Shown: positions 698 through 38,034 of the stretch, in pieces
How the letters are laid out: each line of letters begins with the position of its first letter
Numbering within the stretch: the first letter of the stretch is position 1
Virus record (IMG/VR): IMGVR_UViG_2534681658_000022
DNA length: 38,034 bases
Origin: a virus
Lineage: Duplodnaviria; Heunggongvirae; Uroviricota; Caudoviricetes
Direction: 5' to 3' (one strand)
Position numbers and translations under genes: made by a program
Notes under the pieces: generated by a model
Databases searched by the model: none
What the model saw: the letters and a program-made list of their open reading frames with translations, nothing else
Told to the model about the DNA's origin: nothing

Positions 698-1060
698 GGG
701 GCTGATTCTGGATTCGACGGGATTTGCGAAACCCAAGGTGCATGCCGAGGGGCGGTTGGCCTCGTAAAAAGCCGCAAAAAATAGTCGCAAACGACGAAAA
801 CTACGCTTTAGCAGCTTAATAACCTGCTTAGAGCCCTCTCTCCCTAGCCTCCGCTCTTAGGACGGGGATCAAGAGAGGTCAAACCCAAAAGAGATCGCGT
901 GGAAGCCCTGCCTGGGGTTGAAGCGTTAAAACTTAATCAGGCTAGTTTGTTAGTGGCGTGTCCGTCCGCAGCTGGCAAGCGAATGTAAAGACTGACTAAG
1001 CATGTAGTACCGAGGATGTAGGAATTTCGGACGCGGGTTCAACTCCCGCCAGCTCCACCA
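698..1060 (+). ncRNA. ssrA: tmRNA (SsrA, transfer-messenger RNA)
   Basis: 363 nt starting GGGGCTGATTCTGGATTCGACGGG and ending GGTTCAACTCCCGCCAGCTCCACCA (tRNA-like 3' end with CCA). Internal tag frame at 781-813, GCAAACGACGAAAACTACGCTTTAGCAGCTTAA, encodes ANDENYALAA-stop. Confidence 0.93.
1016..1060. repeat. attL core: 45-bp direct repeat (3' end of ssrA), identical copy at 36244-36288
   Basis: ATGTAGGAATTTCGGACGCGGGTTCAACTCCCGCCAGCTCCACCA occurs twice in the window and brackets the phage gene set. Confidence 0.85.
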
Positions 1061-9384: not shown

Positions 9385-11114
9385 CAGACCCCCTCCGCAA
9401 TAAACCCAATATTCCATCCACCGTTATCTCCGGTGATGCTCAGAGTAAAGCCAGTTGCAGTAATAGCTGTAATGGCGACACCCTCAACACTCCCACCGTG
9501 TGACGAACGGAAAACGGGGATCACGTACCAGCACTGACGGGCAAATGGTGTCGGAAAATTCACCTGATACTCTTTATTCACCACACCAGTTGCCCCGGAA
9601 AAATAACTGTTAAAAAACTGCTTCAGCACACCGCCAGTTATTCGGTGATGATTGCTGCCAAATGAAAATTCATCTTCACAAACACCCCGACGCCATAGTG
9701 TTGTATTGTCTTTAACCGTATCAGAGCCGCTGAAACGGTGATACATTTCCCCTGCTCCGGTGATGAAAATCTGCGCGCGTCTGTTCTTGTTATACGCAGC
9801 CTGAAAACCTGCACCATTCGATGGCACTTCATCTGCATTACCTGAATATGCAAGAAACTGTGAAACCTCACCCATTTCGTAGTTATTATTGCTACCGATT
9901 CCGTATGCTCCCTGTTGCAGAGCACTTTCAGCCTTATCAACCGTCGGTTTAAGTCCCAGATTCTGAATAAACAAAGTCGGGTCAGGAATATCAGCACCAT
10001 TGCGGTCCTTTGCCAGTCTCGCGCTGGCGTTGTCCATCGCAATTTTTACCGCTTTCAATGTCGCCGCAACATTTTCTGACACGCTGTTTACCTCGTTCCC
10101 CAGTTGCACCATTCCTTTAACACTCACTGATGCTTCTGGATAATGTGCACTGGTGAACACCTGATTCCACGGTGTTTCATCATCGGCAATTTTCGATAAC
10201 ATGCTGAATCGACAGTACATCTTGCCATCATTAGCGACATAAATTTGTGCACGTCGATTGTCGTTGTAACAGGCCTGGAAACCAGCACCATGTGTTGGCA
10301 CTTCTGGATAGCCGACAGCTGTACCATAAGCAAAAAATTGCGATTTGGTTCCCATGGTTTTCAGATAAGCCAGGCCAATTCCATAATCTCCTGGCTGAAT
10401 CGCTGATGCAGCTTTATCAACAGTCGTTTTCAATCCCAGATTCTGAACAAACAGTGCCGGATTGGGAATATCAGAACCATTGCGGTCTTTTGCCAGTCTG
10501 GCGCTGGCATTATCCATCGCTATTTTCACTGCTTTTGGCGTTGCAGCGACTGTTTCATCATTGCTTTCCACACCGCTATACAGACGTACAAATCCCTTTT
10601 CTGTCAAAGACGCAGAAGGATGGCGGCGCGATTGCTCATGAATTTCTATTTGTTGATCTACATAATGACGGGTTGCCAGCACGACAGCAGGGTCGATTTT
10701 CAGGGGGATATTGTCCGTGCTGCTGGTAATCAGCACCATGCGCACGGTCTGGGTGCGCCCGCTGCCTTCAGCCAGTTGCGGCTTATAGCTTTCCGGGCAG
10801 TTGCCCACGGCAATCAATGCCCCGGACTCATCAAACAAGCCCACTTCACGTATCCACCAACCGCCCTCGTTTTCAGGGATCACCTGTTCGGCAATAATCT
10901 GACTGCTGTTCTGCGGGTCGATATAGAGCATATTCAGCGCAGCCCGGCGTTTCTCATTTACCAGTGCAGTCTGCTTTGAGTCTGGCGTTGGCAATACTCC
11001 GCCGCCATCGCCGACCGCCATATGGGTAATTTTTAGCGGCACACCGAGCGCGGCGGCGCTGGCAAGTTTCGCCGCGCCAATATCCGTCAGCAGGGTATAA
11101 AATTTTGTGCTCAT
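9384..11114 (-). CDS. H: Tail fiber protein
   Basis: 576-aa ORF between baseplate gene I and the fiber assembly gene; contains an internal tandem duplication of about 60 aa. Confidence 0.85.
   Translation of the reverse strand: MSTKFYTLLTDIGAAKLASAAALGVPLKITHMAVGDGGGVLPTPDSKQTALVNEKRRAALNMLYIDPQNSSQIIAEQVIPENEGGWWIREVGLFDESGALIAVGNCPESYKPQLAEGSGRTQTVRMVLITSSTDNIPLKIDPAVVLATRHYVDQQIEIHEQSRRHPSASLTEKGFVRLYSGVESNDETVAATPKAVKIAMDNASARLAKDRNGSDIPNPALFVQNLGLKTTVDKAASAIQPGDYGIGLAYLKTMGTKSQFFAYGTAVGYPEVPTHGAGFQACYNDNRRAQIYVANDGKMYCRFSMLSKIADDETPWNQVFTSAHYPEASVSVKGMVQLGNEVNSVSENVAATLKAVKIAMDNASARLAKDRNGADIPDPTLFIQNLGLKPTVDKAESALQQGAYGIGSNNNYEMGEVSQFLAYSGNADEVPSNGAGFQAAYNKNRRAQIFITGAGEMYHRFSGSDTVKDNTTLWRRGVCEDEFSFGSNHHRITGGVLKQFFNSYFSGATGVVNKEYQVNFPTPFARQCWYVIPVFRSSHGGSVEGVAITAITATGFTLSITGDNGGWNIGFIAEGV
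9941..10080. repeat. Tail-fiber internal repeat, copy 1 (about 85% identical to 10421-10560)
   Basis: Nucleotide blocks TCCCAGATTCTGAA...GAATATCAG.ACCATTGCGGTC.TTTGCCAGTCT.GCGCTGGC repeat 480 bp apart in frame, giving two VAAT.KAVKIAMDNASARLAKDRNG.DIP protein segments. Confidence 0.7.
10421..10560. repeat. Tail-fiber internal repeat, copy 2
   Basis: Second copy of the 140-nt block described for 9941-10080. Confidence 0.7.
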
Positions 11115-26134: not shown

Positions 26135-27001
26135 TTAGATGGCTTTGCTTCGATATTCAATTTCTAAAATCGCCTTTGTCATTGCCGCAATAGTTATAGC
26201 TTCTACCATAGTCAATTCAGGCTTGTTCAAGCTTCCGTGTCCAGCAGTAGGTAATTTGTTACGTAAATCATAAATATCTTTAACAGCATCAATAAGATTC
26301 TTAGGTAATTTTGACATTTTTTCGAACTGTTTAAAAAAACCACCCAATGACTCATTTGCCACATTCGGGTTTTGAGTGATTTCCTTAGCCATAGTTTCTA
26401 AAACATTAGAGGCTGCGTGCAGTGCACCTGCCGGATCATTATTATCCAAGCAATTATTCATTCTATCTATTTGCTGAACGATATTTGGGTGCAATCTCTT
26501 TAAGTAATCACTAGCCAATTCTTCATTGAAATTTTTGACACTTTCAAAAACATCGCAATCTAAATAAAATTTAGGATTGACTGACATCCATGTATATTTC
26601 CAATCATTTTCTAAATTATCTTTTTCCGCAATACGCCTGCCAGTGTCCTGATCTATCTCATCAACATATTTACACATATAATCGGCGTAGTAGTGTAAAT
26701 ATCTAAATGATATTTCTGGGCAAAAATTACTAACTGATGCAAGGCCGCCATATTCTTTTGTAGTAACTGTAGGGACTTCTTCATCACATAAAGATGAGAA
26801 AGTGGTTCTTTCCCAAAATTCGCCCAACTCTTTTTCTTTCCTAGTTGCCATACCAGCTATCATATTGATGCTTGAGAGCAAAACTACACTCTGATAGTAT
26901 CGAGGACATCTGTATGAACTAGCATATGGGCATATTGATGATGCTTTACGATTAATACGCTCTTTTTCCCACCAATTTTTATCAGGAATAATTCTTTGCA
27001 T
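26135..27001 (-). CDS. Hypothetical protein, Cys-rich N-terminus (uncharacterised hotspot cargo)
   Basis: 288-aa AT-rich ORF, convergent with the 217-aa gene. N-terminal cysteines (CPY...C.RYY...CPE...CKY); C-terminal region with LRNKLPTAGHG. No recognised family; the true start may be a downstream Met. Confidence 0.55.
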   Translation of the reverse strand: MQRIIPDKNWWEKERINRKASSICPYASSYRCPRYYQSVVLLSSINMIAGMATRKEKELGEFWERTTFSSLCDEEVPTVTTKEYGGLASVSNFCPEISFRYLHYYADYMCKYVDEIDQDTGRRIAEKDNLENDWKYTWMSVNPKFYLDCDVFESVKNFNEELASDYLKRLHPNIVQQIDRMNNCLDNNDPAGALHAASNVLETMAKEITQNPNVANESLGGFFKQFEKMSKLPKNLIDAVKDIYDLRNKLPTAGHGSLNKPELTMVEAITIAAMTKAILEIEYRSKAI

Positions 27002-34472: not shown

Positions 34473-35489
34473 ATGACTGTCAGAAAACAGCCAAACGGTA
34501 AATGGTTGTGCGAGTGCTATCCCAATGGACGCAATGGCAAGCGCGTGCGTAAGCAATTTGCTACGAAAGGCGAAGCCATTGCTTTTGAAAGCTTCACAAT
34601 GGAAGAAGTGAACAAAAAACCATGGCTGGGGGAAAAGGAAGATCGGCGACACCTATCAGAATTAATTGAGCAGTGGTATTCCCTGTATGGTCAAACACTC
34701 GCAGACCCCAAGCGCCTCATGGCGAAACTTAGAATTATCTGTAATGGTCTAGGCGATCCCATCGCTTCAGAACTGACAGCCGGTGACTTTACGAAATACC
34801 GCGAAGCACGGTTAAAAGGTGAAGTACGAAATGAAGATGGCACGTTTATGTCGCCCGTTAAGCCCCGCACGGTAAACCTTGAACAGCGCAATCTATCATC
34901 TGTTTTTGGTACACTGAAAAAGTTGGGCCACTGGTCAGCCTCCAACCCGCTTGCTGGGCTGCCAACATTTAAAATTGCTGAGAGTGAATTGGCGTTCCTG
35001 ACCCCGGAAGAAATTAAACGTCTGCTGGATGCCTGCGCCGATTCTCAAAGCTCCAGCCTGCTTTTGATTGCAAAAATATGCCTGGCCACCGGCGCACGCT
35101 GGAGCGAAGCCGAAAACCTGCAGAGTCATCAGGTATCAAAATACCGTATCACTTATACCAAGACCAAAGGCAAGAAAAACCGAACTGTGCCTATTTCTAA
35201 GGATTTATATGAAGAACTGCCTAAGAATAGGGGGAAGTTATTCACCCCATGCAGAAAAGCCTTTGAGCGTGCAGTAAAGCGGGCTGGTATCGATCTGCCA
35301 GAGGGTCAATGTACTCACGTTCTGCGTCATACATTCGCTAGCCATTTTATGATGAATGGTGGAAACATATTGGTTTTGCGGGATATCCTAGGACATTCAG
35401 ATATAAAAATGACCATGGTCTATGCACACTTCGCCCCAGACCATTTAGAAGATGCCGTAACTAAAAATCCTTTATTTAATTTGAGGTAA
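34473..35489 (+). CDS. int: Tyrosine integrase (P2/186 type)
   Basis: 338 aa with the conserved R...HxLRH...Y catalytic region (VLRHTFASH...MTMVYAH); follows cI. Confidence 0.92.
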   Translation: MTVRKQPNGKWLCECYPNGRNGKRVRKQFATKGEAIAFESFTMEEVNKKPWLGEKEDRRHLSELIEQWYSLYGQTLADPKRLMAKLRIICNGLGDPIASELTAGDFTKYREARLKGEVRNEDGTFMSPVKPRTVNLEQRNLSSVFGTLKKLGHWSASNPLAGLPTFKIAESELAFLTPEEIKRLLDACADSQSSSLLLIAKICLATGARWSEAENLQSHQVSKYRITYTKTKGKKNRTVPISKDLYEELPKNRGKLFTPCRKAFERAVKRAGIDLPEGQCTHVLRHTFASHFMMNGGNILVLRDILGHSDIKMTMVYAHFAPDHLEDAVTKNPLFNLR

Positions 35490-35499
35490 GTAGTAATTT

Positions 35500-36168
35500 A
35501 TGAATAGCGAACTAGAGTTACTTATAAAAATATTATTCCCTTCCCTATCTGCCATTATATCCTTATTAGGGCTTAAAACAGGGTGGACTTATAAAAAAGA
35601 CAAACTATTCACATCACGTAAAAACATTAGCGAATTTTCATATCAGATGTATAAAAGCAGTGAAGATCCGACCTTCAAAAAACTGGCGGAAGATTACGGC
35701 ATTGCTGCATTAACCAAAGATAACACATTGACAAAAAAACAAAGATTAATATTACTCAACACAACAAACCCCGTTAGCGATATAGATAATTATTCCAAAT
35801 GTCAAAGTCTAATTTCCATTACCACCCATAAAGAAATATTCGCATGGAATAAAAAAAGATATAAATACAGCATATATAGAAAATTAATAAAAATCATAAC
35901 AACTCTAATTTACTTCATGAGCAGTCTCATCGTAGCACTTCCTTTCAGTTATTCTGTTGTAGTAAGTGCTAAGATGATGGAGAAGATAAACCATCTAACT
36001 ACTTGGCAATACTTTGGTTTAAGCAGCTATTTTGTGGTATCGGGAGTAGCAATATGCTTTATCTGCCTAGATAAGCTCTCCAAGATTAAGATCGCCGAGA
36101 GATTAATCGTTTCGAATAGGCGTTTAGGCGACAAATGCAGTGGCGGCACTTTGGCGGCAGAAAGTTAA
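35500..36168 (+). CDS. Hypothetical membrane protein between int and attR (candidate lysogenic-conversion cargo)
   Basis: 222-aa very AT-rich ORF starting 11 nt after the int stop on the same strand. N-terminal TM helix, Lys-rich cytoplasmic region, then two C-terminal TM helices. Confidence 0.55.
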   Translation: MNSELELLIKILFPSLSAIISLLGLKTGWTYKKDKLFTSRKNISEFSYQMYKSSEDPTFKKLAEDYGIAALTKDNTLTKKQRLILLNTTNPVSDIDNYSKCQSLISITTHKEIFAWNKKRYKYSIYRKLIKIITTLIYFMSSLIVALPFSYSVVVSAKMMEKINHLTTWQYFGLSSYFVVSGVAICFICLDKLSKIKIAERLIVSNRRLGDKCSGGTLAAES

Positions 36169-36243: not shown

Positions 36244-36288
36244 TTGAAATGCTATGTAGGAATTTCGGACGCGGGTTCAACTCCCGCC
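36244..36288. repeat. attR core: second copy of the 45-bp ssrA 3'-end repeat
   Basis: Identical to 1016-1060. Confidence 0.85.
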
Positions 36289-36322
36289 AGCTCCACCACT
36301 TTTTAGTTGTTTGAAGTTCAAT

Positions 36323-36356
36323 GAAGTCTACTAAGCCCACACAGCACAAGCTCTGC
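36323..36356 (+). terminator. Rho-independent terminator downstream of the displaced ssrA 3' end
   Basis: Imperfect hairpin AAGCCCACACAGC / GCTCTGCGGGCTT followed by TTTTTT. Confidence 0.4.
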
Positions 36357-36463
36357 GGGCTTTTTTACGTCTATTGTCGTCCAGTGAGAATTGCTGAGAA
36401 CTACGAGTTATGGCACCCTGAATGGGACCCACTAAGAAGGGTCCAAAAACCGAGGGTCCCAAA

Positions 36464-37249
36464 ATGGCAAAAATCGCTAAGAAGCTCACTGACACTGAAA
36501 TCAAAAGCACCAAGCCAGCCGATAAAGAAATCAACTTGTTTGACGGTGATGGTCTGATTCTACGAATCGCTCCTTTGGCGAAAGGAGGCAAGAAAAATTG
36601 GTATTTCAGGTATGCAGTACCAGTGAGCAAGAAAAGAACCAAAATGAGCCTTGGGACATATCCTCACCTTACCCTTGCAAGAGCCAGAGCCTTACGTGAT
36701 GAATATCTCTCCTTTCTGGCAAATGGTGTTGATCCCCAAATCCATAACAACGATAAGGCGAAGGCATTAAAGAGTGCTACTGAGCACACTCTCCAAGCCG
36801 TAGCGCGGAAATGGTTAGATGAGAAGGTAAAGACATCAGGTATCTCACAAGACCATGCAGCAGACATCTGGCGCAGCTTAGAGAGAAATGTCTTTCCCGG
36901 TCTGGGTAATGTCCCTATCAATGAGATCCGACCTAAGCTCTTAAAACAACACCTTGATCCTATTGAGCAACGAGGCGTATTGGAAACTCTACGCCGTATC
37001 ATTTCACGTCTGAATGAAATCTTCCGGTGGGCAGCTACTGAAGAACTTATTGAGTTCAACCCGGCTGACAACCTTGGTCAAAGATTCAGTAAACCAAAAA
37101 AGCAAAATATGCCTGCCCTTCCCCCAAGCGAATTGCCAAGGTTTATGGAATCTTTGACGAATGCGTCAATCCGGTTGGAAACACGTATGCTAATTGAATG
37201 GCAATTGTTGACATGGGTTCGTCCGGGTGAAGCCGTTCGCGCAAGGTGA
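36464..37249 (+). pseudogene. intA: P4-type (IntA-like) integrase, 3'-truncated by IS insertion
   Basis: N-terminus (TDTEIKSTKPADKEINLFDGDGLILRIAP...) and internal segment (ESLTNASIRLETRMLIEWQLLTWVRPGEAVRAR) track the CP4-57 IntA family. The frame ends in a TGA created at the IS629 left end. Confidence 0.8.
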
Positions 37250-37300
37250 ACCGCCCCGGGAATCCTGGAGACTAAACTTCCTGAGAAAGAGGTAAACAGG

Positions 37301-37627
37301 ATGACTAAAAATACTCGTTTTTCCCCCGAAGTCCGTCAACGGGCAGTCCGTATGGTTCTGGAAAGTCAGAGCGAATATGACTCACAATGGGCGACAATTT
37401 GTTCCATTGCTCCAAAGATTGGCTGTACGCCGGAGACTCTGCGTGTCTGGGTTCGCCAGCATGAGCGGGATACCGGGGGCGGTGATGGAGGGCTCACCAC
37501 CGCTGAACGTCAGCGTCTGAAAGAGCTGGAACGTGAAAATCGTGAACTGCGCCGCAGTAACGATATCCTTCGCCAGGCTTCCGCTTATTTTGCGAAGGCG
37601 GAGTTCGACCGCCTCTGGAAAAAATGA
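37301..37627 (+). CDS. IS3-family transposase OrfA (IS629-type)
   Basis: 108-aa product [41 protein letters not shown]... recognised as IS629/IS1203 OrfA. Confidence 0.9.
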
Positions 37628-38034
37628 TGCCACTGCTGGATAAGCTGCGTGAGCAGTACGGGGTCGGACCGCTATGCAGCGAACTGCATATTGCCCCGTC
37701 AACGTATTACCACTGTCAGCAACAGCGACATCATCCGGATAAACGCAGTGCCCGTGCGCAGCGCGATGACTGGCTGAAGAAAGAGATACAGCGCGTATAC
37801 GATGAAAATCACAAGGTATACGGTGTGCGTAAAGTCTGGCGTCAGTTGTTACGGGAAGGTATCAGAGTGGCCAGATGCACTGTGGCACGTCTCATGGCGG
37901 TTATGGGACTTGCCGGTGTTCTCCGGGGTAAAAAGGTCCGTACGACCATCAGCCGGAAAGCCGTTGCCGCAGGCGACCGCGTAAACCGTCAGTTCGTGGC
38001 AGAACGACCTGACCAGCTGTGGGTGGCTGATTTT
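37624..38034 (+). CDS. IS3-family transposase OrfB (IS629-type), 5' partial
   Basis: Open frame from ATG 37624 to the window end ([30 protein letters not shown]...), overlapping the orfA stop. Confidence 0.85.

Follow-up and report, generated by a model that had tools for sequence, protein, structure and literature searches.

Tandem arrays of islands at tRNA and tmRNA genes were reportedly described by Williams ('Traffic at the tmRNA gene', published 2003 in J Bacteriol 185:1059). According to Islander, no target is more enriched for islands than the tmRNA gene, and 125 tandems are found among 3919 islands, a tandem being defined such that each member must have its own integrase as well as its own tDNA fragment (PMC4383910). 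In E. coli, the tmRNA gene is hotspot #9 and is occupied by prophages, P4-like satellites and other elements (PMC10121019).

Two described elements at ssrA, the tmRNA gene of E. coli, are closest to the one analysed here. CP4-57 from strain K-12 has a size of 22 kb, with a P4-type integrase (IntA) just downstream of ssrA. It carries alpA, rnlAB, abpAB and others as cargo, and has retained a distal ssrA fragment (psaA). The other one is found in the O111 strain 1639/77, beside the cryptic Stx1 prophage CP-1639, which is integrated at ssrA. The sequence record AJ304858.2, the source of which is Creuzburg et al. (2005, Microbiology 151:941, doi 10.1099/mic.0.27632-0, as cited in PMC8065619 and PMC13596339), annotates there a 'remnant integrative element', as its depositors have termed it, with an IS629 that abuts intA. 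This annotation lists intA and genes for three proteins (a 138-aa hypothetical one, one of 582 aa and a histidine-kinase-like one), after which come ygaQ and csiD. The insertion element, IS629, consists of orfA, the ALIL pseudoknot and orfB; its complete copies have 1310 bp and are found with 3-bp duplications. IS1203 is a close relative of IS629 within the IS3 family.

We have analysed a stretch of 38,034 nucleotides (IMG/VR record IMGVR_UViG_2534681658_000022), referred to as the window. It represents the end of contig AQDL01000055.1 from E. coli 2860050 (assembly GCA_000354995.2), minus the last base. ARAGORN detects one tmRNA gene in the window. We propose that the ssrA hotspot of this strain has a history of three layers, a remnant of an island, a P2-family prophage and a hit by IS629, and assign a probability of about 0.85 to this reading. 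The features on which it is based are collected in Table 1. As in the tandem arrays of Islander, successive elements share a single tDNA. The proximal element has both an integrase (34473-35489) and a 45-nt ssrA fragment (36254-36298) of its own, while the integrase of the distal element is truncated and no distal ssrA repeat was found in the closest complete relatives.

Table 1 Features at the ssrA locus in the window. All positions refer to the window.
Feature	Position	Strand	Details
ssrA (tmRNA gene, integration target)	698-1060	+	ARAGORN; tag peptide ANDENYALAA
45-nt repeat, copy on the attL side (3' end of intact ssrA)	1016-1060	+	exact direct repeat D2
P2-family (Peduoviridae) prophage, ~35.2 kb	1061-36253		between ssrA and the older island
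Tyrosine integrase of the prophage, 338 aa	34473-35489	+	Pfam Int_N and Phage_integrase
Displaced ssrA 3' fragment	36254-36298	+	100% identical to 1016-1060
Island integrase, 5' part, 783 nt (261 of 409 codons) with IS-supplied TGA	36464-37249	+	
IS629, left 788 nt (complete element 1310 bp)	37247-38034	+	IRL TGAACCGCCCCGGGAATCC
IS629 orfA, 108 aa, HTH	37301-37627	+	Pfam HTH_Tnp_1; transpos_IS3 profile positions 1-86
ALIL pseudoknot, programmed -1 frameshift signal	37582-37698	+	Rfam RF01497
IS629 orfB, first 137 codons, open at the window end	37624-38034	+	no stop

The element behind the prophage is the same island that occurs beside CP-1639, with the integrases being 91.9% identical. In both strains, the integrase is located behind a prophage that has integrated into ssrA, and it is cut by an abutting IS629. 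However, the prophage is a lambdoid Stx1 phage in strain 1639/77 but P2-type in the window, and IS629 resides at about codon 87 in the former but at codon 262 in the latter. Also, the 5' part of the integrase and the displaced ssrA fragment are missing in strain 1639/77, whereas the 5' part and attR are intact in the window. With CP4-57, the island shares a P4-type integrase that is located just downstream of ssrA and agrees in orientation and in its three domains, with 48% sequence identity over 408 aa between the intact protein and IntA from K-12. The sequence-only reading had described the integrase as IntA-like and of the kind found in CP4-57-type islands. The assignment to the P4/IntA type stands but the island is not CP4-57, which is ruled out by the differing cargo (relatives lack the alpA, yfjI, rnlAB set) and by an integrase that is only 48% identical. 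The relatives also lack a distal repeat, which is present in CP4-57.

The last 45 nt of ssrA have a single exact recurrence in the window. This copy is both the attR that belongs to the prophage and the att on the proximal side of the older island. A set of prophage-free strains (L005, L006, L008-L010) joins window position 1060 directly to position 36299, the flanks being 99.8-100% identical, and judged from this comparison they represent a precise empty site for the prophage. As the integrase directly follows ssrA in these strains, the island was the resident element and the prophage arrived later; for the same reason the possibility that the integrase is a part of the prophage was discarded. 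E. coli 103605 (L001) combines the prophage with an uninterrupted integrase of 409 aa and thus provides the empty site for the IS. Its ssrA region is 99.92% identical to positions 1-37248 of the window.

In strain 103605, the prophage is annotated with P2-type capsid, terminase and tail genes as well as gpA, Ogr, CI/CII and Fil genes, and the counterpart of the prophage integrase is annotated as a site-specific integrase. Among named phages, Escherichia phage Cartapus comes closest (72% coverage, 95.4% identity). P2-type phages are known for variable defence cargo among accessory genes of the kind that is found here between the replication and portal modules. One of these accessory genes gives a faint match to Abi_C in the source contig (L007 1-538, approximately window 26464-27001), and in strain 103605 the accessory genes include an AAA ATPase and an HNH endonuclease (L018 19504-23631). 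The prophage also contains a direct repeat of 239 nt (9895-10133 and 10375-10613, family D1), the copies being 70% identical and 480 nt apart. Between the prophage integrase and attR there is an A+T-rich ORF with hydrophobic stretches, which codes for 222 aa (35500-36168) and for which neither Pfam nor PADLOC gave a match. This ORF may represent a moron, carried as cargo by the prophage at its att-proximal end. At 36348-36372, about 50 nt past the displaced ssrA fragment, there is a hairpin with a T-run behind it. In prophage-free strains this sequence comes after the intact ssrA, and there it may serve as a terminator that is supplied to ssrA by the island. In the window, intact ssrA runs into prophage DNA instead.

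The island integrase is read from an ATG at 36464, which is 166 nt past the ssrA 3' fragment, while an alternative in-frame ATG at 36422 would give a form that is longer by 14 aa. From 36299 to 37248, the window is 100% identical to the region with the intact allele in strain 103605 (L001; WP_001341819.1). The intact allele has all three domains of the family, with PF00589 at aa 219-383, and scores 440.6 bits on NCBIfam NF007246 (cut-off 434). In the product from the window, Arm-DNA-bind_3 (PF13356, DUF4102) is detected at aa 8-95 (E 9.7e-23) and the central core-binding domain Phage_int_M (PF22022) at aa 111-204 (E 1.5e-23). The N-terminal domain also matches solved 'CP4-like integrase' domains (3ju0, 3jtz). 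The catalytic domain PF00589 gave no match in a Pfam search with the 261-aa product.

Tyrosine recombinases have the catalytic set Arg-Lys-His-x-x-Arg-His-Tyr, with the tyrosine as nucleophile. The box I arginine, which we take to be R253 (TWVRPGE) from the known motifs of tyrosine recombinases, is kept in the window product. This product ends after R253...R261 and is devoid of HGMR (342-345), H369 and Y379, which were placed on the intact allele by alignment to IntA. The truncated integrase is considered inactive because everything else in the catalytic domain has been lost, and the tyrosine with it. Without the Lys, the His-x-x-Arg, the His and the Tyr nucleophile, the 261-aa product is, as judged from these motifs, catalytically dead and incapable of recombination. 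The gene can be assigned to the P4/IntA-type family by its arm domain, its core-binding domain, the similarity over the whole protein and its position beside the tmRNA 3' end, with the window product lacking the C-terminal catalytic domain. Integration and excision at ssrA are predicted for the intact protein as a trait of this family, and the copy in the window is classified as a pseudogene.

The element that follows is an IS3-family element and is assigned to IS629, based on a terminal inverted repeat that starts with TG, on sequence identity and on the -1 frameshift arrangement of orfA and orfB. It is 100% identical to copies annotated as 'IS3-like element IS629 family transposase' in RefSeq and to the initial 788 nt of a copy that is complete (1310 bp) and has a 3-bp duplication, while five full-length copies of IS1203 show only 96.3-96.7% identity. 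The orfB, which is in the -1 frame relative to orfA, covers positions 93-223 of the NCBIfam transpos_IS3 profile, and the ALIL pseudoknot scores 120.2 bits against a gathering score of 50. The window covers only the left 60% of the element, as it stops at nt 788 of the IS, where its contig ends as well. A DDE (rve) catalytic domain, a right inverted repeat and a 3-bp target duplication are further traits expected of such an element.

The window can be aligned with the intact allele as far as 37248, and the left inverted repeat begins at 37247. Where the intact gene reads ...CGCGCAAGG TGG TCT GAT..., the window reads ...CGCGCAAGG TGAACCGCCCCGGGAATCC..., and the stop codon of the integrase frame, TGA at 37247-37249, consists of the first three bases of the IS629 left inverted repeat. 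The IS resides in codon 262, just past the box I arginine. The sequence-only reading had claimed that attR adjoins an integrase gene, that its frame ends exactly at the left inverted repeat of an IS629-like element, that the integrase of the older island is inactivated, and that two elements have used the ssrA 3' end. These observations were confirmed to the base, and the ssrA loci of related strains, which it had suggested for comparison, agree: they supply empty sites for the prophage (L005, L009) and for the IS (L001), the 1060-36299 join and the intact 409-aa allele. Its interpretation is partly supported, as detailed below for the mobility of the island.

Contig AQDL01000055.1 ends inside IS629. 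It is normal for short-read drafts that contigs end within an IS, and an assembly might also have joined the unique end of a contig to a repeated IS in a chimeric way, in which case the true integrase would be intact. The source is indeed a draft short-read assembly in which the junction is close to the end of a contig, and 5426 complete E. coli genomes as well as the GTDB species representatives lack the exact left junction. The only near match is from strain UTAK-13, where an IS1203 is inserted 38 nt further downstream. However, the identical left junction was read in a separate Logan contig (L012), and contigs from several other NCBI and Logan assemblies end at most 2 nt from the junction (L008-L010, L013, L014). 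The exact 261-aa product is found on 12 contigs and under four NCBI protein accessions. Also, the integrase and the IS meet precisely where the inverted repeat of the latter begins, as it results from real transposition. An artefact is thus very unlikely, with a probability close to nil, and the insertion of IS629 into codon 262 is considered genuine but rare.

The right flank of IS629 lies beyond the available sequence. We expect a simple insertion in which 3 bp of the target are duplicated and the 3' part of the integrase comes right after the IS, because five other copies of IS629 or IS1203 are simple insertions with 3-bp duplications. Four of them are in the same or in related integrases and one is in the neighbouring response-regulator gene (L002). 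For strain 2860050, this model would imply ...GGGGCGGTTCA followed by AGGTGGTCTGATATTGAT at the right junction, and the expected right end would read ...GGGGCGGTTCA-AGG-TGGTCTGAT, that is GGTTCA-AGG-TGGTCT. The predicted junction (IS end, 0-8 nt, integrase remainder) had no match among JGI metagenome contigs, and neither of the two IS junctions was found on a contig from this set, in the 5426 complete E. coli genomes or in the GTDB representatives. A look-up with the 131-aa C-terminal ORF retrieved only point-mutation pseudogenes, which have no IS context. An integrase that continues past the IS, which the sequence-only reading had regarded as a sign of an assembly artefact, is just what is expected from a simple insertion and would not restore function.

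Alternatively, IS629 could mark a rearrangement, in which recombination between two IS629 copies or an IS-mediated adjacent deletion has removed the 3' part of the integrase or moved it elsewhere, perhaps along with the remaining island, so that unrelated DNA would follow the IS in strain 2860050. A contig that stops within the IS is compatible with this, and relatives of the strain carry several identical copies of IS629 on chromosome and plasmids. In addition, such events have precedents: in O111:H8 strain 7-27 20A and in CP-1639, IS1203 or IS629 joins the integrase to prophage genes and there is no target duplication. In the O111:H8 strain, these are prophage tail genes, and as the duplication is absent it must be concluded that IS-mediated rearrangement does occur at this locus. 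On the other hand, the five simple insertions argue against it, as do, to a lesser degree, at least 12 contigs from other samples which begin at most 2 nt from codon 262 and then run through the 3' part of the integrase into the island. The latter contigs (including L022-L031) were found by an exact-sequence look-up, which introduces a bias, and sister contigs start at many other codons. We consider a rearrangement unlikely and retain the simple insertion as the expected structure.

Insertion of IS629 is not the only way in which this integrase has been broken at codon 262. In two strains (L005 10784-10786, L011 5454-5456), Trp262 is changed from TGG to TAG, and in a third (L006 10784-10786) it is changed to TGA, which corresponds to window positions 37247-37249. 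These TAG and TGA codons, which occur in prophage-free and IS-free strains, give a product of 261 aa that does not differ from the one left by the IS629 insertion. In other strains, the N-terminal pieces of the integrase have 245, 247, 263, 267 or 271 aa, and IS629 or IS1203 are inserted at codons ~87, 168, 207, 252 and 274 of the same or of related integrases. In complete E. coli genomes, such elements occur independently in this integrase family at no fewer than five positions besides that of the window (sites include L003 5563-6872, L004 5968-7277, L015 4803-6092, L016 4712-6021 and L017 4002-5311). These other IS copies all have 3-bp duplications, except for the rearranged O111:H8 copy. 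Three IS sites, including the one from the window, are between codons 252 and 274. This clustering may indicate a mild target preference or simply reflect strains that are rich in IS elements.

When three independent events (TAG, TGA, IS629) result in an identical product that has both DNA-binding domains intact, it might be argued that the 261-aa stump is retained as a functional DNA-binding regulator or as a decoy against ssrA-targeting P4-type elements. An expressed stump would then occupy ssrA-proximal att or arm sites, and truncation at codon 262 would have been selected rather than resulting from decay. If true, the stump might interfere with integration or excision of other P4-type elements that target ssrA. 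However, the three events were retrieved by searching with the exact protein sequence, so the coincidence is built into the search and is not read as selection. Nonsense mutations arise most easily at Trp codons, and fragments of 245-271 aa together with IS hits at many codons look like unselected decay. A retained function is highly improbable, both for the stump as such and for its action at att sites. A search with the 261-aa fragment mostly returned full-length representatives and is not a length census of truncated alleles. The truncations at codon 262 probably represent recurrent decay as seen through a biased look-up, and the variety of breakages in this integrase is in line with relaxed selection.

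The remainder of the island would lie downstream of the window and has been analysed in relatives. Behind the integrase, strain 103605, O103:H2 strain CEC12044 and others have genes for a 138-aa hypothetical protein, a Response_reg_2 protein and a HEF_HK/HATPase_c protein, and then directly a 5'-truncated ygaQ. In the sequence from strain 103605 (L001 7533-11489), the Response_reg_2 (582 aa) and HEF_HK/HATPase_c (572 aa) genes are convergent. This cargo is kept in many E. coli, and PADLOC gave no match for it. The search for a distal ssrA repeat was based on perfectly matching 14-mers, on a 20-mer in which as many as 3 mismatches were tolerated and on a 16-mer with a tolerance of at most 2 edits. 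In strain 103605, L002 and L005, no distal repeat was found, the matches being restricted to ssrA and the attR of the prophage, while the same search recovers psaA, the distal repeat of CP4-57, in strain K-12. The right end of the island thus seems to be deleted in the relatives. As these have no distal ssrA repeat and the island ends there at a truncated ygaQ, the island had probably become immobile by the time the IS came in, a view that is based on the relatives and not on strain 2860050 itself. The sequence-only reading had proposed that the disrupted integrase locks the island in place. While the integrase is indeed dead, IS629 would add little to an immobility that had already been caused by loss of the distal att.

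The 45-nt repeat, the position of the break, the assignment of the insertion element to IS629, the loss of the catalytic domain and both empty sites are directly seen, while the following order of insertions is what we infer. The oldest layer would be a small island that is headed by a tyrosine integrase of the P4/IntA type. It would have entered the 3' end of ssrA and would already have been a remnant in this lineage, its far end including the distal att repeat having been deleted into ygaQ. Subsequently, the P2-family prophage would have integrated into ssrA via the 45-nt identity block, thus displacing the remnant 35.2 kb downstream and leaving the 45-nt ssrA fragment at the new boundary. 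As the third layer, IS629 would have transposed into codon 262 of the integrase, with its first bases, TGA, terminating the reading frame. The prophage-free contigs L008-L010, however, end at the IS junction. In some lineages the IS may be older than the prophage, or the prophage may come and go.

For annotation, this means that 36464-37249 should be described as a pseudogene and that the immobility of the island should not be ascribed to the IS alone. The boundary of the prophage is best set at 36253/36298, as predictions will otherwise take in the adjoining integrase. The record for 'Escherichia phage phi467' (LN997803.1 33002-38226, L021) ends with an intact integrase, which is 100% identical, and with island cargo. 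In this record, the prophage boundary appears to overrun attR into the adjoining island remnant.

In summary, the island wreckage at ssrA is of an ordinary and previously described kind, with the insertion site at codon 262 being new but of no special consequence. Beyond annotation the significance is limited: the locus is a textbook case of layering at the tmRNA gene, with an old island, a later prophage and an IS, and it comes with empty-site controls for each step of the layering.
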